Assembly (NCBI GenBank): GCA_965248435.1
Contig: OZ252100.1
Span: forward strand, 5,152,001 to 5,216,000
Source: Candidatus Latescibacterota bacterium
GTDB taxonomy: Bacteria; Latescibacterota; UBA2968; GCA-2709665
Direction of reading: 5' to 3'
DNA: 64,000 nucleotides
Shown: in pieces, positions 6,952-21,615 of the stretch
Layout of the letters: each line of letters opens with the position of its first letter
How positions within the stretch are numbered: position 1 is the first letter of the stretch
The notes under the pieces: model-generated
Told to the model about the DNA's origin: nothing
Seen by the model: only the letters and a program-made list of their open reading frames with translations
The model's database searches: none
Program-made: the position numbers and the translations under genes

Positions 6952-8292
6952 ATGCCAAATCGCAAGACCGCTTTGATGCTGCTTGAGTTAGTTGGTTTGG
7001 CTTTTTTGGCTGTAGTTTGCAGCGATAACAAGACGTACAACGAAGCCGGGCAAAAGGCTTACGAGCAGGGCCACTACGCCGAAGCTGAAAAGCAATTTGT
7101 GGCCGCTCTCGAAGAAGCAGAAAAGGTCGGGCCTCAAGATCCTGGCCTCGCCACAAGCCTGAACAATCTGGCGGGAGTTTACAGAGCCCAGGGCAAGACT
7201 GCAGAGGCCGAGCCGCTATACAAGCGGTCACTGGCGATATTGGAAAAGGCCCTTGGGCCAGACCATCCTGTTGTGGCGGCCTCCTCGAACAATCTGGCGG
7301 GACTTTACAGAGCCCAGGGCAAGACTGCAGAGGCCGAGCCGCTATACAAGCGGTCACTGGCGATATTGGAAAAGGCCCTGGGGCCAGACCATCCTGATGT
7401 GGCGGCCTCCTTGAACAATCTGGCGGGACTTTATAGAGCCCAGGGCAAGTATGCAGAGGCCGAGCCACTATACAAGCGGTCACTGGCAATCAAGGGGAAA
7501 ACGCTTGGGCCAGACCATCCTGATGTGGCGACCTCCTTGAACAATCTGGCGGGACTTTACAGGGCCCAGGGCAAGTATGTTGAGGCCGAGCGACTAAACA
7601 AGCGGTCACTGGCGATATTGGAAAAGGCCCATGGACCAGACCACCCCTCTGTGGCGACCTCTTTGAACAATCTGGCGCTACTTTACAGAGCCCAGGGCAA
7701 GTACGCAGAGGCCGAGCCACTAAACAAGCGGTCACTGGCGATATTGGAAAAGGCCCATGGACCAGACCACCCCTCTGTAGCGACCTCCTTGAACAATCTG
7801 GCGCTGCTTTATCATGACCAGGGCAAGACTGCAGAGGCCGAGCCATTATACAAGCGGTCACTGGCGATATGGGAAAAGACCCTGGGGCCAGACCATCCTG
7901 ATGTGGCTACCTCCTTGATCAATCTGGCGGATTTTTACGGAACCCAGGGCAAGTATGCAGAGGCCGAGCGACTGAACAAGCGGGCACTGGAGATCATGGA
8001 AATGGTCCTGGGGCCAGACCATCCTGATGTGGCGATCTCCTTGAACAATCTGGCGGAACTTTACAGAGCCCGGGGCAAGTACGCAGAGGCCGAGCCACTA
8101 TACAAGCGGTCACTGGCAATACTGGAAAAGACCCTGGGACCAGACCATTCCCATGTGGCCAAAAGCCTGGAGAACTACGCTGCCCTGCTACGGAAAACGC
8201 AACGCAACTTCGAGGCGGAAGAAATGAAGGCTCGCGCAAAGGCGATCCGGGTCGAGCAAGCAATGAGAAACACATCCGTGATAAGTGAATAG
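6952..8292 (+). CDS. Tetratricopeptide-repeat protein (42-aa kinesin-light-chain-type repeats) with N-terminal hydrophobic/lipoprotein-like signal
   Basis: About 8 tandem HPxVATSLNNLAxLYxAQGKYAEAEPLYKRSLAIxEKxLGPD units (126-bp DNA repeats); LVGLAFLAVVC N-terminus. Confidence 0.92.
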   Translation: MPNRKTALMLLELVGLAFLAVVCSDNKTYNEAGQKAYEQGHYAEAEKQFVAALEEAEKVGPQDPGLATSLNNLAGVYRAQGKTAEAEPLYKRSLAILEKALGPDHPVVAASSNNLAGLYRAQGKTAEAEPLYKRSLAILEKALGPDHPDVAASLNNLAGLYRAQGKYAEAEPLYKRSLAIKGKTLGPDHPDVATSLNNLAGLYRAQGKYVEAERLNKRSLAILEKAHGPDHPSVATSLNNLALLYRAQGKYAEAEPLNKRSLAILEKAHGPDHPSVATSLNNLALLYHDQGKTAEAEPLYKRSLAIWEKTLGPDHPDVATSLINLADFYGTQGKYAEAERLNKRALEIMEMVLGPDHPDVAISLNNLAELYRARGKYAEAEPLYKRSLAILEKTLGPDHSHVAKSLENYAALLRKTQRNFEAEEMKARAKAIRVEQAMRNTSVISE

Positions 8293-8316
8293 GATAGGGG
8301 ATCGCTGGATTTGGCT

Positions 8317-8478
8317 TTGAGGGGGCAGTGTGGCACGCCCTGTCGGGGTTCGAATCCCCGCTTCGGCACCAGTTAAAAAACAAAGGGTTACGTCATCAAG
8401 ACGTAACCCCTTTTTATTGCCAATTGCGCCACTGCTGCCATTTTGCTACCGTTTGGATCACTTGATGCGAACCCAACT
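8317..8478 (+). repeat. tRNA-Leu-linked repeat copy 2 (55 bp tRNA 3' part + terminator + arm)
   Basis: Begins in the anticodon loop (TTGAGGGGGCAGT); variable arm differs from the intact tRNA; same terminator and arm as copy 1. Confidence 0.93.
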
Positions 8479-8736: not shown

Positions 8737-9621
8737 ATGGTCGACATTCCCTATGTGGTATCCGAGGAAGAAAAGTACTATTTCGACCTCAGAGGCTACC
8801 TGATCATCCGTAACGTGCTTTCTCCGGAAGAAATCGGTGCCTGCAACCACGCCATCGACCAGTTTACCGACCAGATTGTGCCCGGCAACGAAATCGGGGA
8901 ACTCTCCCGGGGCTCAGAGGCTCTGGCCGGCAGCGGCCGGATCGAATTGCGCGGCATGCTCGGCTGGCCCGAACCCCACCGCAGCCCTTTCCGCAACCTA
9001 CTGATCCACCCGGTCGTCGTCTCCCGCCTCAACGAATTCTCCGGCAAGGGTTTCCGCCTGGACCACGGCCCCCTCCTCATCAGCGCCAAAAAAGGCACCG
9101 AAGGCCACTGGCTCCACGGCGGCGGCGAACCCTTCAGCCCGGCCGTCTGGTACCACCAGCAAAACGGCAAAATCTACTGCCGCGGCATCACCGTCGCCTG
9201 GCAGTTGGCCGTCTGCGGTCCCGGCGACGGCGGCTTCTGCATCGTGCCGGGAAGCCACAAACTCAGCGAACCCACGCCGGAGGAAGTCCGTTTCGCAGAA
9301 GATGATATGGACCTCATTGTCCAGCCTGAAATGGATGCCGGCGACGTCCTCTTCTTTGCCGAAACCGCCACTCACGGCGCCCTGCCCTGGAAGGCTGACC
9401 ACGACCGCAGGTCCGTCCTCTACAAATACACCTCCCGGGCCGCGGCCCGGGAGGTGGGCAAGCACTTTACGCCACAAGAGCGTTACGGCGAATGGGTCAA
9501 CGAACTCACCCCCGAACAGCAGGCTGTCCTCTACGGCCCCGGCGTGCACCACGGAGGGCGGCTGCCCCTGCTGGAGTCGGATGGGAAATCAGTGCAGATC
9601 GTGGAAATGGAGACCAAATAA
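8737..9621 (+). CDS. PhyH-family Fe(II)/2-oxoglutarate dioxygenase-like protein
   Basis: FDLRGYLIIRNVLS, LHGG, GGFCIVPGSHK, AGDVLFF..HG. Confidence 0.88.
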   Translation: MVDIPYVVSEEEKYYFDLRGYLIIRNVLSPEEIGACNHAIDQFTDQIVPGNEIGELSRGSEALAGSGRIELRGMLGWPEPHRSPFRNLLIHPVVVSRLNEFSGKGFRLDHGPLLISAKKGTEGHWLHGGGEPFSPAVWYHQQNGKIYCRGITVAWQLAVCGPGDGGFCIVPGSHKLSEPTPEEVRFAEDDMDLIVQPEMDAGDVLFFAETATHGALPWKADHDRRSVLYKYTSRAAAREVGKHFTPQERYGEWVNELTPEQQAVLYGPGVHHGGRLPLLESDGKSVQIVEMETK

Positions 9622-10534
9622 TGGACGCCAAAGAACGCTACCTCTGGGATTTGAACGGGCACCTGATTGTCTGCAACGTCCTCAGCGAGGAGGATCTCAA
9701 AGCCGCAAACGATGCCATCGACTTCTGCGCCGACCGCATCGTGCCGGGCGATGAAAACCGCCTTTCCAGAGGCTCCACGTTCTGCAGGGCCTGGGGCGTC
9801 CCGGATTGCAGGGCACCAACCTGCTCGACATCGAAAAACCATACTGCGACATCTTCCGCAAACTGCTCGTCCACCCCGCCGTCATCTCCCGCCTGAAAGT
9901 CATGTGCGGCACAGGCTTCCGTCTCGACCACGGCCCCCAGTTTATCGGCGGTATCAAAGGCACCTCCGGGCACGCCCTCCACGGCTCCGGAGCCCCCCAC
10001 AAACCCTACGTGGCCTATCGCAACCGGAACGGTGAAATGCACTGCGCCGGCGTCACCGTCTCCTGGCAACTGGTCGAAGTGCCTGAAGGCAAAGGCGGGT
10101 TCGCCTGCGTGCCCGGCTCTCACAAATCCGACTTCGACATGCCCGAAGGCGTGCGCACCGTGGACGACGACATGGGCACCTCCATCAACCCCGAAGCCCA
10201 CCCCGGCGACGTTGTCTTCTTTATGGACGGGGCTCAGACCCACGGCACATATCCCTGGGTGAACGACCACGAGCGCCGTTCCATCCTTTACAAATTCGCC
10301 TCCCGTACCGCCGTTCGCTCAGGTGTCTCCGTCCAGATTGCTCCCCCGGAGATCTACTGGGATGAAAACATCGTCGACGGCATGACGCCGGAAGAGCGTG
10401 CTGTCATGTATGGCCCCTGCTCGGGCCACGGAGGCGTCGTCCCCTCCCTCGATGTCACAGAAGACGGCACCGTCATCGTGGAAGGTGGAGACGAGACCAA
10501 AGCACCCCCGACGCCTGATGGACCTCCGCAATGA
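9621..10534 (+). pseudogene. Second PhyH-family gene, frameshifted near 9782
   Basis: ATG 9621 (TAATG overlap) gives MDAKERYLWDLNGHLIV..., paralogous to the upstream gene; homology continues in the 9806-10534 frame (LHGSG, VPGSHK, PGDVVFF..HG). Confidence 0.8.
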
Positions 10535-10854: not shown

Positions 10855-12393
10855 ATGCGATACTCTCGACTTAAGTGGGTTTTGCCCATCGTAGTCTGCA
10901 CTTTGGCCGTTGTGACATCTGCTTATGCTCAGGTAAGAAGGGCGCCTCCGCCTCCGGGTAGACAGACACAGCAGGACTCTGTTACCGAGATCAAAGAGTT
11001 GAAACGCCAGATTGACCAACTGATGGGTAAACTCCCCCCCAACGTACAGGACGAGCTTGAAAAGGAACTGGCACAACCTCCTGGACCGCTCTCTCGCGGG
11101 CAGCCCCCTCAGACAGGCCGACCGCTGCCGTCGGACCAAGAGGCGGTGAAGCGTAAGATCCTTACGCTGAAGGATGAGATGGACAAACTGATGAGCAAGC
11201 TGCCACCGCGCACACAGGCCGAGCTCAAGCAGGAGCTGGCACAACCTCCGGAATCACCCCAGAAACCGGGTAGACCACAGCCGGGCCGAGGATCTCCACA
11301 GCTCGGAGGAACGCAGCTGGCTCCGCCACGGCCTGGTGCCCCGCAGCCAGGTTCACAGCAGCAACCCGGAGCTCCGCCGATTGGCGGAACTCAGCCCGGT
11401 CTGCCACAGCCTGGCCATGGTTCCCCCCAGTTCGGCAGACCTCAGCCGGGCCCACCTCAGCCGGGTACAAAGCATGCCGGTCCACCCGGAAAATCCCAGC
11501 CAGGTGCCCAGCGGCCTGGTGTGACGGAGGCCGGTCCACCCAGGCCCGGCGTCCAACCGTCTGGACCCCAGCCGGCGCCTCAGCAGCCTCCACCCCAGAA
11601 AACGGGCGTCCAACCGTCTGGACAACCCGCCCTCCTGATCGACGAGGAGTGCGCGTTCGTGAGCAGCACCTCGATGGGGGAAGTCCCCCCCAGAAGTAAT
11701 GTGGTCCCGCCACTCACGGTCGAGGTGGAGGGGGGCAGGATCCCCAACAAACTATTCCGGTGGATCGAGGACTCTTTTGCCGGCAGCGGAGTCGCGACCA
11801 GATCGGGTGAGATCCACATCATCCGCATCTCAGACTACGAATCGATGGCCGTCCGCGAATTCCAGAACGCCCACATCTCGAGCGTCACCTTTTCCGCGCT
11901 GGACGCCAATAGCCTCGATCCAACCCGCATCACGGTTGCTTTCAACCCTGAGAGCATCGTCAATAAGGCGGGCACCGGCAAGACCTCCAGTCCGCCAGGG
12001 TGGCCAGGGCAGAAAGGTAGGACATACTTTCGCGTGACCTTGGATGGGTTACCAACCAGCCACGTGTCACGGATCGAGTCGTTCGCCTGGAGTCGAGACT
12101 TGGATGGGAACACGGTCACGGTCCCGGAGCTCGAGCTGACCATCTCAATGATCGACTATGATGTCTACTTGGAAAAATTCGAAGCGTTTGTGATCTCCGG
12201 TAACCTTGGGACCGAACAGGAACTTGCCGGCAGTCTGGAACTCCTCGCCGGTAATCTTAAGACCGTTCTGGCCACTATTGAGCTGGGGGGCGTCACGCCC
12301 GTCTCCATCGACATCGGCAAATTTGAGGCGAGCAAGGAAGCAATGGCCCGCTTCAAGGTCCGTCTCAATGTCGGTAGCATGCGGTTCAAATAG
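10855..12393 (+). CDS. Secreted protein: signal peptide, duplicated helical repeat, Pro/Gln/Gly linker, tandem phage-tail-tube-like domains
   Basis: AYA-Q signal cleavage; LFRWIEDSF..RSGEI..REFQNAHISSVTFSALDA..FNPE and FRVTLDGL..VSRIESF..PELELTI..FVISGN..GSLELL pattern of gp19-like double-domain tube proteins. Confidence 0.7.
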   Translation: MRYSRLKWVLPIVVCTLAVVTSAYAQVRRAPPPPGRQTQQDSVTEIKELKRQIDQLMGKLPPNVQDELEKELAQPPGPLSRGQPPQTGRPLPSDQEAVKRKILTLKDEMDKLMSKLPPRTQAELKQELAQPPESPQKPGRPQPGRGSPQLGGTQLAPPRPGAPQPGSQQQPGAPPIGGTQPGLPQPGHGSPQFGRPQPGPPQPGTKHAGPPGKSQPGAQRPGVTEAGPPRPGVQPSGPQPAPQQPPPQKTGVQPSGQPALLIDEECAFVSSTSMGEVPPRSNVVPPLTVEVEGGRIPNKLFRWIEDSFAGSGVATRSGEIHIIRISDYESMAVREFQNAHISSVTFSALDANSLDPTRITVAFNPESIVNKAGTGKTSSPPGWPGQKGRTYFRVTLDGLPTSHVSRIESFAWSRDLDGNTVTVPELELTISMIDYDVYLEKFEAFVISGNLGTEQELAGSLELLAGNLKTVLATIELGGVTPVSIDIGKFEASKEAMARFKVRLNVGSMRFK

Positions 12394-12625
12394 CCTGAAT
12401 CCAACGGAGACAACAACCAGAGCAGCAGCATCAGACTAGACCCTAGAATCCAGCCGGGACGAGAATCCCAATGAAAGGCGGCGGGACAGAATCTTCTCCT
12501 CACCTTCAAATCGGCCTGTAGGACGGACTTCCATTTGGCCTGGCAAACACATCTCGCGCTGGCCTCCCACCAGCCCGCCTGGAGGTTCTTGACTCACCAT
12601 ATTCAGTTGTCAAAGAGCAGATCCG

Positions 12626-12688
12626 CGGTATACCACTTCGGCCCGTTCGGTGTTCACGCACCGGCGGGCCTTTCTCTTTGCTTAGATT
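12626..12688 (+). repeat. 63-bp terminator-containing direct repeat, copy A
   Basis: CGGTATACC..GGCCCG.TCGGTG-TTCACG-CACCGGCGGGCC-TTTCTCTTT; 4 mismatches versus copy B. Confidence 0.9.
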
Positions 12689-12814
12689 CGCCACTTCTTC
12701 TGGGCTCTGGAATCACTATATTGAGTGATCACTGTCACGTGCTTTTTTGGTTTAAATGCGTAAACTAAACGTGCTTTCCGAGTCTTGCAGGAAACCCAAA
12801 AGGAGGAACATGCC

Positions 12815-13729
12815 ATGCGAACCCATAAATTACCCTTGGTCTTGACCCTTACGATTCTCCCTTTAATCATTTCCACACCAAGCAAAGCAGCCGACTTACG
12901 AACAGACCGATACGAACAAAAAGCAGTTCTGTTGATTGGGGGCCAAGATCCAAACGCAATCCGTGTTAATCTGGGGGAAAAGGTGCAAACCAGGTCCTCT
13001 GGGCAGCGTGTTGTGGAAACAAACCAGGGCCGGCTGCTTGATTTCAGCGTTTATATCGATCTAACATTCCCTACATCATCACTATCCAGTTGGATACATG
13101 AATCGGTTACCAAAGGAGTCGCCAGCACAAGGCTTGTCGAGCTCACAAGTTATGACCCCGCTTTGGGTAAAATGCGTCAGGATGTGTTCCCCAGCAACTA
13201 TGTCATCTCGCGGGTTATCTTCCCCATGTTAAACGCTAAGAGCAGCTCCCAAGCCGAAATGTCGGTCCAGATCATCCCCAGCGGTCTCCCGTTAGGCTCA
13301 GGAGGGGGAGGGGGATCTACTGGGCGTGTTGAACATAAAACCCAGACGCTGATTAGTGAGAGAGACTTCAGTGTGGAAAACAACATCGGTCTGCCTGAGG
13401 ACGTGCAAGTCCAAGCCGTTAGCCATCTGACCTGGCAGAAGGAAGGTGGCCAGGTCCAGATTTCACCGGTTCAATTGACACTACTCTTGACCAAAGACGT
13501 TGCAAAGGCCTTCTCTGACCTCATGACGAAAGTTCGCATAGGTGGCTTGCTGCGAGGTAGCATTACCCTGCATCTGATGAACCCGATGACCAGGTTGCCG
13601 ATGTATTCGATCGAGCTGCATAATCTGACGCTTGTTTCATTCCAGCAGTCTCAATTGATGGATCGATCCGGTCTCCTCTCCGGTGAGATGGTAATAAAAC
13701 CCGCACAGGTCATTTTTACTTCCCGTTGA
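12815..13729 (+). CDS. Secreted protein, divergent tandem tail-tube-like fold
   Basis: GGAGG RBS, signal peptide (..STPSKA-ADL); LSSWIHES..STRLVEL..VISRVIFPMLNAKS and GSITLHL..SIELHNL echo the upstream protein. Confidence 0.5.
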   Translation: MRTHKLPLVLTLTILPLIISTPSKAADLRTDRYEQKAVLLIGGQDPNAIRVNLGEKVQTRSSGQRVVETNQGRLLDFSVYIDLTFPTSSLSSWIHESVTKGVASTRLVELTSYDPALGKMRQDVFPSNYVISRVIFPMLNAKSSSQAEMSVQIIPSGLPLGSGGGGGSTGRVEHKTQTLISERDFSVENNIGLPEDVQVQAVSHLTWQKEGGQVQISPVQLTLLLTKDVAKAFSDLMTKVRIGGLLRGSITLHLMNPMTRLPMYSIELHNLTLVSFQQSQLMDRSGLLSGEMVIKPAQVIFTSR

Positions 13730-14612: not shown

Positions 14613-15629
14613 TTGACCGAAACCATTCTCGCTGACGGATACCCCGCCCTGAGCGCAGAGGTCACCCGTCTCCTCCAGGAGGGAAAGGTGCGAGCGGTCG
14701 CGGCGGTGGAGCGTGAAACGCTGGTGACCTATCACGGGATCGGGCGCGTGGTGAGCGAGTACCTGCTGGCGCACCCCGCGGGCTACGGCGAGCAGACGAT
14801 GACGCGACTTGCGTCAGACGCAGGGCTTAGCAGGTCTATAATTTACGAAGCCGTTGATTTTTATAGATTTAGACCAAAATTCCATGCGCGTGGAAAATTG
14901 GTCTGGACGCATTATCGAGCCCTCCTCAGGCTGCCGACGGACGCGGAGCGTGACGCGGGTGAGGCAGCGGCCCTGAAGCACTCCTGGAGCGTGCGCGAGC
15001 TGGAGGCGCAGATCAGGGCAGGGGCGATCGCGCCCGCTGCCCGGGCGTCTCGCGAGGTCGCGCCGACCCATCCCCTCGCAGCGCTTCGCGGGCAGTTTTA
15101 CACCTACAAGCTGATCGAGGGGAGCGAACCCGGTGATGGGTTACGGTTGGACCTGGGATTCGGGATACAGCTCGCCTGGCCGATTCCGGAAGAGGAGAGG
15201 TATAGAGCGGGGCAATTCGTGACCGCGTCGCGCGAAGCAGATGAGGCCTACTGCTTCGTTCAGGTCACCGACCGGACCGCCGCGTTCTACACGTATCGAG
15301 CGAAAGTCCTCAGGGTGATCGACGGAGATACGGTCTGGCTGGACATCGACTGCGGGTTCAGGGTGTGGACGCGCCAGAAGGTGCGCCTCCGGGGCATCGA
15401 TACTCCGGAGATCGAGACCGCGGAAGGCGTCCAGGCGCGAGACTTTGTCGTGGACGCGCTGAAGGGCCTGCCGTTCGTCGCGGTCACCACGACGAAGCCG
15501 GACAAGTACGATCGATACCTGGCCGATCTGTTCTACCTGGCTGGAGAAGAGGACAAAGAGGGGGTGCTCAAGGAAGGGGCATTTCTGAATCGCGAGCTCG
15601 TGCAGGCGGGGTTCGCCAGGAGAGTCTAG
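14613..15629 (+). CDS. DUF1016/YhcG N-terminal domain fused to a thermonuclease (SNase) domain
   Basis: YxxIG..YG..L.WTHYRxLL..WSVRELExQI (YhcG-N) then RVIDGDTV..VRLRGIDTPE..DKYDRYLA..LNRELV (SNase). Confidence 0.85.
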   Translation: MTETILADGYPALSAEVTRLLQEGKVRAVAAVERETLVTYHGIGRVVSEYLLAHPAGYGEQTMTRLASDAGLSRSIIYEAVDFYRFRPKFHARGKLVWTHYRALLRLPTDAERDAGEAAALKHSWSVRELEAQIRAGAIAPAARASREVAPTHPLAALRGQFYTYKLIEGSEPGDGLRLDLGFGIQLAWPIPEEERYRAGQFVTASREADEAYCFVQVTDRTAAFYTYRAKVLRVIDGDTVWLDIDCGFRVWTRQKVRLRGIDTPEIETAEGVQARDFVVDALKGLPFVAVTTTKPDKYDRYLADLFYLAGEEDKEGVLKEGAFLNRELVQAGFARRV

Positions 15630-19566: not shown

Positions 19567-20418
19567 ATGACCAAGCATCGGAAGCGAATGATCCGGGACA
19601 TGCAGTTGAAAGGTTTAGATCCGGATACGCAGAAGGCGTACGTGAGCGGAGTGGCCGGGCTGTGTCGTTACTGCAAGACACCGCCCGACCGGCTCAGCGA
19701 AGAAGAGATCCGCGCCTATCTGCACTATCTGATCACTGAGCGGAAGCTGTCCCAAAGCTATGTCAACCAGGTATACAGCGGACTGAAGTTTCTGTTCCAA
19801 ACGACGTTGAAGCGTGACTGGGTCGAGTGGGGCATCCCGCGTGCGAAGAAGGCAAAGAAGCTCCCGGTGGTACTCTCCACAGAGGAAGTGCAGCGGCTGA
19901 TCGACAGGACCAACAACCTGAAACACCGTACGCTGCTGATGGTCATTTACTCTGGTGGGCTCAGACTGAGTGAGGCCATCGGGCTAAAGCTTTCCGATAT
20001 CGACAGTGACCGGATGCTGATCCGTGTGCGGGGCAAAGGCCAAAAAGAGCGAGAGACGCTTCTGGCCCAGGAGGCGTTAAAGGCACTCCGCGTCTACTGG
20101 CGCAGCTACCAGCCTCGCGATTGGCTGTTCCCTGGCGAAAGACCGGATGCACCGCTCCACGCCCGCAGTGTCCAGAAAGTCTTCGAGCAGGCCTGCCGAC
20201 GCGCCGAGATACAAAAGCGTGCGAGTGTCCATTCTCTGCGTCACAGCTTCGCCACACATCTTCTGGACAACGGAGTGGACGTCCGTTTCGTCCAACAACT
20301 GTTGGGTCACACGAGCCTGCGAACCACCACCGTCTACCTCCACGTCACCACTCGCGATCTCACGCGTATCAGAAGCCCCCTGGACCTTTTGGGAGATGAA
20401 GACAAGCCGACCTTGTAG
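19567..20418 (+). CDS. Tyrosine recombinase (IS91-associated type)
   Basis: N-terminal SAM-like domain, YSGGLRLSE, GKGQKER, HSLRHSFATHLL, LLGH..TTxY. Confidence 0.95.
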   Translation: MTKHRKRMIRDMQLKGLDPDTQKAYVSGVAGLCRYCKTPPDRLSEEEIRAYLHYLITERKLSQSYVNQVYSGLKFLFQTTLKRDWVEWGIPRAKKAKKLPVVLSTEEVQRLIDRTNNLKHRTLLMVIYSGGLRLSEAIGLKLSDIDSDRMLIRVRGKGQKERETLLAQEALKALRVYWRSYQPRDWLFPGERPDAPLHARSVQKVFEQACRRAEIQKRASVHSLRHSFATHLLDNGVDVRFVQQLLGHTSLRTTTVYLHVTTRDLTRIRSPLDLLGDEDKPTL

Positions 20419-20430
20419 CAGAGGTCGGCC

Positions 20431-21615
20431 ATGTCACAGCCTCTCGAAGTCGCCGACATCTTCCGAGTCCACGGAGATGGGTATCAAGCACACTACGGTG
20501 ATCACATGCCGCTTCGGCAGAAGCGGGCCATGCGAGCCATCCAGATCTGCCGAACAGCTGCGCTGGGCGGACACGTGGAAGTGTGCGGGCAGTGCGGAAC
20601 GAAGCGGATCGCCTACAACTCCTGCCGCAACCGGCACTGTACGAAGTGCCAGTTCCTGACGACCGAACGATGGATCGACGCTCGTAAAGAGGATCTCCTT
20701 CCGATCCCATACTTCCACGTCGTCTTCACGTTGCCCGAGCCCCTGCGGCCGCTTGCTCTGCGGAACCAGAAGCTGATCTACAACCTGGTGTTTAAAGCCG
20801 CATCGCAGAGTCTTCTGGAGCTGGCGCGGGAACGGAAGTATCTTGGAGCGCAGATCGGCTTTACCGCCGTGCTTCATACATGGTCTCAGACACTCATCGA
20901 CCACCCGCATCTGCACTGTATCGTAACTGGAGGTGGGCTGACCCACGACGGTCAGGAATGGAAGGCGGCGCGACGGGGCTTCTTTCTACCCGTAAAAGTT
21001 CTGTCCCGACTGTTCCGGGGGAAGTTCCTCGCGTTCCTGAAGGACGCGCACCAGGAAGGCCTTCTGGCGTTTCCGGGATTGAGTGCTCCACTGGAAGATG
21101 CGTTCTTCGATCTGCTTCGGGGTCTTTACCAGAGGGAATGGACCGTTTACGTCAAGCCGACTTTTGCGGGTCCAGAACGCATCGTGGCCTATCTGGGACG
21201 ATACACGCACCGGATCGCCATCTCCAACCACCGGCTGGTCGCCTGTGAGGGCGACCGGGTCTCATTCCACTACCGGGACCGCCAGGCCGGCAACCGACGG
21301 AAGCTGATGACCGTCGATGCCTACGAGTTCATCCGGCGGTTCCTGCTTCACATCCTGCCGGATGGCTTCGTGAAGATCCGGCACTACGGACTGCTCAGCA
21401 ATCGGGGTCGCCGGAAAAAGCTCGCACGATGCCGTAGGCTCCTGGGCACTGTATGCACGACGGCTTCCGCAGCCACAAAGGCGACCTGGCAGGACCTTCT
21501 GTTCCGGGTAACAGGCATCGATCTTCAGGTCTGTGCGCAGTGCGGAGGCCCTATGCTCACAGTCGGAACCCTCGCGCCTCTGCGAGCGCCTCCGGCACAT
21601 GTTGCCGTAGCTTGA
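20431..21615 (+). CDS. IS91-family HUH (Y2) transposase
   Basis: Zn-binding CxxC..SCRNRHCxKC, HVVFTLP, HTW..HPHLHC, YLGRYTHR, HILPxGFVKIRHYG. Confidence 0.95.
   Translation: MSQPLEVADIFRVHGDGYQAHYGDHMPLRQKRAMRAIQICRTAALGGHVEVCGQCGTKRIAYNSCRNRHCTKCQFLTTERWIDARKEDLLPIPYFHVVFTLPEPLRPLALRNQKLIYNLVFKAASQSLLELARERKYLGAQIGFTAVLHTWSQTLIDHPHLHCIVTGGGLTHDGQEWKAARRGFFLPVKVLSRLFRGKFLAFLKDAHQEGLLAFPGLSAPLEDAFFDLLRGLYQREWTVYVKPTFAGPERIVAYLGRYTHRIAISNHRLVACEGDRVSFHYRDRQAGNRRKLMTVDAYEFIRRFLLHILPDGFVKIRHYGLLSNRGRRKKLARCRRLLGTVCTTASAATKATWQDLLFRVTGIDLQVCAQCGGPMLTVGTLAPLRAPPAHVAVA

Follow-up and report, generated by a model that had tools for sequence, protein, structure and literature searches.

Two neighbouring genes of a Candidatus Latescibacterota bacterium encode proteins with predicted Sec-type signal peptides, each predicted to be built from two fused copies of the tube module of phage-tail-like injection machines, although no gene for such a machine was found over cut-off in the genome. 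They belong to a large family, with 1054 clusters at 50% identity, in which many members from several phyla carry export signals. We consider it likely that both are exapted tail-tube proteins that are located in the envelope, form rings and work without any contractile machine. Full-text literature searches revealed no description of exported tube-fold proteins.

The two genes and their predicted tube modules

The analysed window is the whole stretch of 64,000 nucleotides from contig OZ252100.1 (assembly GCA_965248435.1, positions 5,152,001 to 5,216,000 of the forward strand). Its first gene encodes P0001 and its second P0002, and the following features were assigned in window coordinates:

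10855..12393 (+), gene for P0001, 512 aa, with signal peptide, two helical repeats, Pro/Gln/Gly linker and tandem tail-tube module (predicted)
10855..10929 (+), Sec-type signal peptide of P0001, residues 1-25, predicted cleavage between AYA and Q
10990..11250 (+), two ~31-residue helical repeats, residues 46-76 and 102-132, with the motif LMxKLPPxxQxELxxELAQPP
11251..11625 (+), Pro/Gln/Gly-rich linker, residues 133-257, 67% P+Q+G
11626..12393 (+), predicted tandem tail-tube module, domain 1 about residues 258-375 and domain 2 about residues 390-512, both long hairpins shortened
12394..12814 (+), 421-bp spacer between the two genes, with no terminator-like site called
12815..13729 (+), gene for P0002, 304 aa, with Sec signal peptide (residues 1-25, predicted cleavage between SKA and A) followed directly by a divergent, predicted tandem tail-tube module

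Both reading frames are intact. The ATG of P0001 lies 8 nt after GGAGGA, while the second frame is open from 12785 but is best started at the ATG at 12815, 7 nt after AAGGAGG. The signal peptides, MRYSRLKWVLPIVVCTLAVVTSAYA followed by Q in P0001 and MRTHKLPLVLTLTILPLIISTPSKA followed by A in P0002, show a basic n-region, an uncharged h-region and small residues at -3/-1; in P0001 the h-region spans residues 9-20 with a mean hydropathy of 2.93. These signals were read from the sequence and scored with a crude hydrophobicity rule, which misses some, as protein P0019 is scored "none" but starts MKRISTLVMAISLTGASASALA. In the model of P0002, residues 1-30 average pLDDT 47-50, consistent with a signal peptide outside the fold. 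The two repeats of P0001 share 19 of 31 identical positions, and the searches made with them found no family.

The sequence-only reading had proposed a tandem tube fold, export signals, an absence of sheath, baseplate and spike genes and shortened hairpins, and these proposals were supported. The motifs it had listed (WIEDS, RSGEI, REFQNAHISSVTFSALDA, FNPE, FRVTLDG, VSRIE, FVISGN, GSLELL) are all found in the translation; only its "PxLxI" is inexact, the sequence being PELELTI.

Pfam alone leaves P0001 below threshold for PF06841 (Phage_T4_gp19; E 8.8e-4, 19.5 bits, or 22.9 bits for the C-terminal part alone, against a cut-off of 28.2), and P0002 has no hit. However, 73 of 76 aligned homologues match PF06841 at E<=0.01, and the family profile hits solved eCIS tubes, namely 8bl4_v at 4.5e-14, Afp1 (6rao_A) at 1.3e-6 and Pvc1 (6j0b_a) at 3.1e-6. 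The AF2 model of the last ~255 residues of P0001 (pLDDT 93.1, pTM 0.90) shows the order beta x4, helix, beta x4 in both halves. It matches double-domain tubes at Z 15.8 (8xan, 8ed0, 9iny; 233-238 of 258 residues aligned, rmsd 3.3-3.6), with each half matching single eCIS tubes (Afp1/Pvc1-like) at Z 12-14.6 and the T4 tube 5w5f at Z 13.2; a Foldseek search was also made. For P0002, which the sequence-only reading had called a weak echo of the first protein, hhalign of the family profile gave a probability of 96.3 and E 2e-9 over 184 columns, although direct BLASTP of the two proteins gave only E 0.12. Its AF2 model (pLDDT 80.5), which rests on an alignment of mostly distant relatives, hits the same targets (8xan_A at 8e-6, 8ed0_A at 1.2e-5).

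Compared with eCIS inner-tube proteins (Afp1, Pvc1, Streptomyces and Algoriphagus CIS tubes), the proteins have two fused tube domains instead of one, a Sec signal peptide and truncated hairpins. The best whole-module structural matches are the fused tail-tube proteins of siphophages (T5 pb6, P74-26 TTP and the SH-Ab15497 major tail protein; Z 15.7-15.8, rmsd 3.1-3.6), which share the topology of two tube domains in one chain. Identity in these superpositions is only 8-17%, and no tblastn match was found in 50,697 phage records for the window's module or for a core member of the family, with 1 locus in IMG/VR. The fusion is probably independent; in addition, the window's proteins have no phage context and no decoration domain, and carry export signals. 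Hcp (TssD) of type VI secretion shows the same fold at Z 9.3-10.9 per domain, and 8 of 76 family members also hit PF17642. Hcp is a single-domain hexamer, whereas here a pseudo-hexamer would be built from three double-domain chains; Hcp also typically lacks a signal peptide and leaves the cell through the T6SS.

Genomic context and the wider family

The neighbours of the two genes are PhyH dioxygenases, a cupin, a nuclease and an LRR protein. In the genome, which is 97.5% complete in two contigs, profile searches gave one sub-threshold match to the sheath family PF04984 (19.6 bits, in a 423-aa ORF with no tail genes beside it), only a 13-bit match with three stops to PF04965 (gp25), none to PF05943 (VipB) or PF04717 (spike), and nothing over cut-off for PF06841 other than these genes. 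This makes it very unlikely that the proteins are parts or cargo of a contractile system encoded elsewhere in the cell or supplied by a partner organism. Such a reading could rely on close relatives being genuine eCIS structural genes, but Sec export would probably remove the proteins from the compartment where CIS particles assemble, and the hairpins needed for a continuous tube are truncated. The genome also encodes Omp85-family proteins (8 matches over cut-off), so a Sec-exported soluble protein would be periplasmic or beyond.

In Kofleriaceae and other Myxococcota, signal-less members of 302 aa sit between the sheath genes of ordinary eCIS operons in 51 of 51 loci. In one CIS-context locus, L021, the order is Pvc16_N, sheath, 302-aa double tube, sheath and 146-aa gp19 tube; CIS_tube, GPD and Phage_base_V domains were identified in the downstream ORFs of its sister loci L051, L060 and L052, and L021 holds phmmer matches to each of them. 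The ~302-aa protein, annotated only as "phage tail protein" or "tail tube protein gp19", aligns end to end with P0001 residues ~258-512 and starts directly at the first strand. Myxococcota eCIS loci carry a fused double-tube gene beside a normal single tube, which raises the question of how a three-fold tube subunit fits a six-fold sheath. The sequence-only reading had named signal-less homologues in ordinary CIS operons as evidence against itself; this holds for one large branch, but it gives the likely ancestral setting and does not refute the idea.

Of 28 members outside such operons, from about ten other phyla, 18 carry signals (10 Sec, 1 lipoprotein and 7 Tat) and 10 none. Sheath genes are absent from 3 of 5 and 4 of 5 orphan-bearing genomes tested, 7 of 10 in total. 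Export is not universal among orphans, since 10 of 28 have no signal and 3 of the 5 genomes tested that hold signal-less orphans also lack a sheath. About half of the 148 nearest cluster representatives also carry Sec, Tat or lipoprotein signals, and signal-bearing members come from Chloroflexota, Planctomycetota, Verrucomicrobiota, Gemmatimonadota, Armatimonadota, Actinomycetota, Nitrospirota and others. On a FastTree of 180 rows the signals are scattered, needing 35 changes for 87 signal-bearing rows against 93 without, and appear in several separate lineages. As 70 of 177 forks are unsupported and the tree has no root, the direction "CIS first, export later" is inferred from homology to single-domain CIS tubes and is not shown by the tree.

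Within its phylum, the window's genome is the only one of 168 genomes with the family, which is also missing from the same-genus genome. It holds a paralogue, P0004, elsewhere, 45-47% identical to P0002 and lying among the housekeeping genes mutL, miaA, der and nusA. Among the relatives, P0003 is 75% identical to P0002, and P0006 is 47% identical to P0001 over its whole length, including signal, repeats and linker. Signal peptides are present in P0001, P0002, P0003, P0004 and P0006. It is very unlikely that the genes are decaying remnants of a lost prophage or eCIS with chance hydrophobic N-termini. The lack of other tail genes, a nearby mobile element and a neighbouring PhyH gene that looks frameshifted would fit decay. 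On the other hand, the frames are intact with Shine-Dalgarno sites, the models are of high confidence, all three paralogues have signal peptides, and clades of relatives share the same kind of signal (7 of 7 rows in the P0002 clade, 6 of 6 in a Tat clade).

Predicted assembly and possible roles

Counting residues between alignment anchors revealed that both long beta-hairpins, which line the lumen and join successive rings in CIS tubes, are cut down in P0001. Whereas 17 of 17 CIS members have 26-29 and 22 residues, P0001 has 13 and 9, its sister P0006 12 and 3, P0002 21 and 7, and P0004 26 and 7. Most exported relatives keep full-length hairpins (medians 26 and 22); a ring instead of a tube would be a feature of this small clade and not of the class.

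A homotrimer model of P0001 residues 255-512 scored ipSAE 0.59 against a best control of 0.02; the pass mark was reached by 20 of 30 solved pairs and 1 of 23 single chains. The runs share at least 84% of contacts with a partner pLDDT of at least 83, and domain 2 of one copy (178-249) touches domain 1 of the next (1-24, 68-80, 116-118). This pass may come from likeness to the solved T5 and P74-26 rings, and the score did not include ring closure (copy 1 with copy 2).

Taken together, we suggest that each protein is exported across the inner membrane of a diderm cell and cleaved by signal peptidase I, as inferred from sequence; no expression data exist, as no RNA run holds the stretch. P0001 most likely assembles head-to-tail into a trimeric ring hanging on a ~125-residue Pro/Gln/Gly tether below two helical repeats. 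With the hairpins cut to about half and about 40% of their length, single or capped rings are expected and not a long tube. P0002 would be a second, very divergent ring subunit without a tether. No conserved partner gene was found across orphan loci, and what the rings do in the envelope is not shown; our preferred reading is a ring-shaped binding or scaffold platform in the periplasm or at the cell surface, comparable to the apparent role of Hcp rings as carriers.

A self-polymerising extracellular or periplasmic tube or filament appears unlikely here. Double-domain tube proteins of this type do form tubes in phages, most exported relatives keep both hairpins, and one relative, P0050, carries a near-threshold cell-wall-binding CWB2 domain (24.3 bits against a cut-off of 24.9). 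However, both hairpins are truncated in P0001 and P0006, the second one is in P0002, P0003 and P0004 (7), and no tape-measure, initiator or terminator gene lies nearby to set a length.

Similarly doubtful is an anti-phage decoy or plug, in which exported rings would bind the tip, tape-measure or ejection proteins of an infecting phage in the periplasm and block DNA entry in the way superinfection-exclusion lipoproteins do. The phage/CIS-derived fold, the very patchy distribution and the fast divergence between paralogues would agree with it, as would a PDC-S02-like DUF1016+SNase nuclease two genes downstream and an integrase plus IS91 transposase 6 kb downstream. Without experimental support, this reading faces the lack of any PADLOC match for P0001, P0002 and P0004, the housekeeping surroundings of P0004, and a Tat-signal clade in Limnocylindria/Chloroflexota whose conserved housekeeping neighbourhood looks vertically inherited. 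The phage-assembly decoy of the sequence-only reading fits poorly with a protein that leaves the cytoplasm.

Tail-tube proteins (gp19, gpV, Hcp, Afp1) are known as cytoplasmically assembled parts of phage tails and contractile injection machines. Here, the predicted module appears cut loose from the machine, having gained a classical export signal and lost the hairpins that make it a tube. Only tentatively, exported tandem tube-fold proteins could form a widespread class of envelope or extracellular nanostructure that arose several times from an eCIS double-tube gene, with rings where the hairpins are trimmed and self-assembling tubes where they are intact. In this bacterium, the tethered P0001 ring and the untethered P0002 and P0004 rings would then form a periplasmic stack or cap that captures or conducts a macromolecule, possibly incoming phage tail parts, with no sheath, baseplate or spike involved. 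The Tat signals are notable because Tat moves folded proteins, and possibly already oligomerised ones. If these proteins form rings or tubes outside the cell, they would be a new kind of bacterial envelope structure and a compact self-assembling scaffold.

The two genes and the predicted fold of their products

The two reading frames are as claimed in the sequence-only reading, which had placed two Sec-signal proteins with a tandem tail-tube fold between 10855 and 13729. The second frame, ending at 13729, is best begun at the ATG at 12815. Both ATGs follow good Shine-Dalgarno sites, and a spacer of 421 bp separates the genes, in which a consensus scan called no terminator and found no more promoter-like sites than in shuffled sequence. 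The genes and the neighbouring features discussed here are as follows:

9624-10534 (+), the second of two tandem PhyH-family dioxygenase genes, seemingly split by a frameshift near 9800, with the N-terminal part in the ORF 9492-9896 and the rest in 9806-10534, either a pseudogene or an assembly error
10855-12393 (+), P0001, 512 aa, with GGAGGA 8 nt upstream of its ATG
12815-13729 (+), P0002, 304 aa, with AAGGAGG 7 nt upstream of its ATG
14613-15629 (+), a protein combining DUF1016_N/ParB-HTH with a staphylococcal-nuclease domain
19567-21615 (+), a tyrosine integrase gene followed directly by an IS91-family (Y2) transposase gene, both flanked by two enolase-superfamily genes, a mobile element in an otherwise metabolic stretch

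P0001 consists of a Sec-type signal peptide (residues 1-25, AYA|Q), a short Pro-rich stretch, two helical repeats of 31 residues with 19 of 31 positions identical, a linker of 125 residues that is 67% Pro, Gln and Gly, and a C-terminal module of 255 residues, while in P0002 a signal peptide (SKA|A) is followed directly by the module. Here and for the relatives, signal peptides were judged from the sequence and with a crude rule of our own. The Pro/Gln/Gly tether and the helical repeats of P0001 look like an anchoring or spacing device, but no family or partner could be assigned to them: for the repeats, Pfam Metal_resist (E 0.67) and NCBIfam LIC_11485 (E 0.023) were both far below cut-off, the ESM Atlas gave no usable hit, and a word-indexed search with residues 27-135 gave no hit at E<=0.01. 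No RNA run was listed as containing the stretch; the 4 runs that contain it belong to one study and sample.

Pfam alone was not enough to assign the module, since P0001 scored 19.5 bits on PF06841, below the cut-off of 28.2 bits, and P0002 scored nothing; NCBIfam and PHROGs gave nothing usable for either protein. An exhaustive phmmer search with residues 255-512 of P0001 against 1.84 billion cluster representatives, however, revealed 1054 proteins at E<=1e-3 and 271 at E<=1e-10, most of them about 300 aa long. Of 76 that were aligned, 73 match PF06841 and 8 also match Hcp/TssD, and the resulting profile hits solved eCIS tubes, namely the Streptomyces CIS tube 8bl4_v (4.5e-14), Afp1 (1.3e-6) and Pvc1 (3.1e-6). 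The AF2 model built on this alignment is confident (pLDDT 93.1, pTM 0.90) and shows the same strand-helix-strand pattern twice. Foldseek put double-domain siphophage tube proteins first, and structural alignment (VIA-align) gave Z 15.7-15.8 over 233-238 residues to the SH-Ab15497 major tail protein, the P74-26 tube and T5 pb6, whereas each half alone gave Z 12-14.6 to eCIS tubes and about 9-11 to Hcp.

P0002 is too far from P0001 for BLASTP (E 0.12), but it matches the family profile by hhalign with a probability of 96.3 and E 2e-9 over 184 columns. Its model has a pLDDT of 80.5, with the signal peptide disordered, and hits the same structures. In addition, P0002 has a 45-47% identical paralogue, P0004, at G000:C1:201529-202452 (-) in the organism's own genome (G000), equal to positions 7527-8453 of the fetched locus L005. 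P0004 also carries a signal peptide and stands alone among the housekeeping genes mutL, miaA, der and nusA, next to a 925-aa protein that, from reading the sequence, looks like an FG-GAP/VCBS-like repeat protein.

Members of the family inside and outside eCIS operons

Where sources name the family at all, it is called "phage tail protein" or "tail tube protein gp19". We fetched 80 genomic loci using a tight alignment of core members. In Kofleriaceae and other Myxococcota, the 302-aa protein starts directly at the first strand, without a signal, and lies in a standard eCIS operon. In one such locus, L021 (7617-18626), the order is Pvc16_N, sheath, the 302-aa double tube, sheath and a 146-aa gp19 tube, followed by two large unknown ORFs; CIS_tube, GPD and Phage_base_V domains were identified by Pfam in the downstream ORFs of the sister loci L051, L060 and L052, and L021 holds phmmer matches to each. 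Fifty-one loci with a complete family gene are of this kind, and none of the 51 has a signal. L021 and about 50 sister loci (L009-L061, L088) carry a fused double-tube gene between two sheath genes in addition to a normal gp19 tube gene, and a three-fold tube subunit inside a six-fold sheath would be unusual for a contractile system.

Twenty-seven other loci, encoding 28 proteins, show no CIS gene within 10 kb by phmmer with the Myxococcota proteins as queries. They come from Gemmatimonadota, Armatimonadota, Methylomirabilota, Verrucomicrobiota, Planctomycetota, Chloroflexota (including Limnocylindria), Acidobacteriota, Actinomycetota, Nitrospirota and Burkholderiales. Of these 28 proteins, 10 have Sec signals, 1 a lipoprotein signal, 7 classical Tat signals (TSRRRFLGTAAGATG...) and 10 none. 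Only 1 of the 27 loci, L078 (4735-7089, +) on a Myxococcales MAG contig, has two family genes side by side, a 469-aa protein with an N-terminal extension of 177 residues and then a 305-aa one. No partner gene is shared across phyla, and only lineage-internal synteny was seen. For example, the Tat-signal members of Limnocylindria/Chloroflexota (loci L068, L073, L075, L076, L084 and L087) sit in a shared neighbourhood that, from reading the ORFs, looks like housekeeping genes (thymidylate-kinase-like, pdxS/pdxT-like, glycosyltransferases), suggesting long vertical inheritance of the exported form there. Another family member, P0050 (638 aa), has a signal peptide and a near-threshold CWB2 cell-wall-binding domain (24.3 bits, cut-off 24.9) ahead of the tube module, which hints at surface display in a Gram-positive organism.

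A whole-genome search for the sheath domain found none in 4 of 5 genomes with signal-bearing orphans and none in 3 of 5 genomes with signal-less orphans, although these are MAGs and absence is therefore not proven. The one sheath found in a signal-bearing genome, the Armatimonadia MAG G050 with the orphan locus L058, lies at L091:9198-10430 (+; G050:C80), on a different contig from the family gene. It is a 410-aa sheath-like gene (phmmer E 1e-62 to a Kofleriaceae eCIS sheath) with no other CIS gene on its 34-kb contig. It does not link L058 to a CIS and may be an orphan sheath.

Among the 148 nearest cluster representatives with a start codon, our rule called 77 signal-bearing. On a FastTree of 180 members the signal needs 35 changes and the CIS context needs 4; many forks are unsupported, so these are rough figures. 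Even so, signal-bearing and signal-less proteins are clearly interleaved, while some clades are uniform, with 6 of 6 being Tat in Limnocylindria/Chloroflexota and 7 of 7 being Sec around P0002. P0001 groups with P0006 (support 99), which keeps the whole layout of signal, repeats, linker and module at 47% identity, inside a small clade that our rule scored 4 of 5 Sec; the fifth, P0019, has a visible signal peptide that the rule missed. P0002, P0003 and P0004 form their own long branch (support 100), and the two neighbours are therefore not a recent tandem duplication. The family showed no tblastn match in 50,697 phage records and one locus in IMG/VR.

Genome context and probable acquisition

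The assembly is 97.5% complete in two contigs, and nothing passed the cut-off for sheath, gp25, VipB or the spike OB domain. A sub-threshold sheath match at G000:C1:4656840 is a 423-aa protein in a locus without tail genes. PF14065 (Pvc16_N) gave 0 matches, but this is uninformative because its control was found in no genome. That the two proteins are remnants of decay or, alternatively, parts of a hidden CIS is in each case considered very unlikely.

The family was found in 1 of 41 genomes of the same order and in 1 of 168 genomes of the phylum, that one genome being the organism's own. A 17-kb DNA query found the neighbouring PhyH genes in relatives, but nothing for 10855-13729, and the integrase and IS91 transposase lie 6 kb downstream. 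The genes were therefore most likely acquired by transfer, although the GC content, 0.50 for P0002 and 0.60 for P0001 against a genome mean of 0.566 (sd 0.043 in 900-bp windows), is not decisive for recent transfer. The patchy distribution, the fast divergence and the nuclease encoded two genes downstream of P0002, which matches the PADLOC candidate defence family PDC-S02 (best E 2.8e-18), would fit an anti-phage decoy or plug, but PADLOC gave no match for P0001, P0002 or P0004 themselves, and we regard this role as unlikely. The genome encodes Omp85-family proteins, so the cell has an outer membrane, and a cleaved Sec substrate would end up in the periplasm or beyond.

Predicted assembly and possible role

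Self-association is supported by a model only. Three copies of the module gave an ipSAE of 0.59 against a best control of 0.02, the runs agreeing in at least 84% of contacts with a partner pLDDT of at least 83; this mark was reached by 20 of 30 solved pairs and by 1 of 23 single chains. In the model, domain 2 of one copy packs against domain 1 of the next, which is the lateral contact of a tube ring, but this may reflect likeness to the solved T5 and P74-26 rings, and ring closure was not scored. The stretch between the anchors that bracket the first long hairpin is 26-29 residues in 17 CIS members, but 13 in P0001, 12 in P0006 and 21 in P0002, and the second stretch is 22 in all 17 CIS members, but 9 in P0001, 3 in P0006 and 7 in P0002, P0003 and P0004. 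In the solved structures of Hcp, gp19 and Afp1, these hairpins appear to build the continuous inner barrel and the ring-to-ring contacts. We infer that the proteins make rings that do not stack into long tubes, an inference that applies only to the present clades, since most other exported relatives keep full-length hairpins.

Although their role is not known, we prefer a ring-shaped binding or scaffold platform in the envelope, because it asks least of the data; a filament or conduit is unlikely, being weakened here by the trimmed hairpins. By profile and fold the proteins belong to the tail-tube superfamily, but they differ from an eCIS structural gene in context, in the presence of a signal and in hairpin length, and they share topology, but no detectable sequence kinship, with the fused tube proteins of T5 and P74-26. 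PF06841 has been treated as an eCIS core domain (Geller et al. 2021, PMC8213781), and full-text searches found no paper on Sec- or Tat-exported tube-fold proteins, leaving aside supplementary domain tables such as those of that study, which might list PF06841 genes outside eCIS loci. What appears to be new here is thus the exported form of an otherwise known fold, and the interest lies less in this one locus than in the multi-phylum exported radiation that it reveals.
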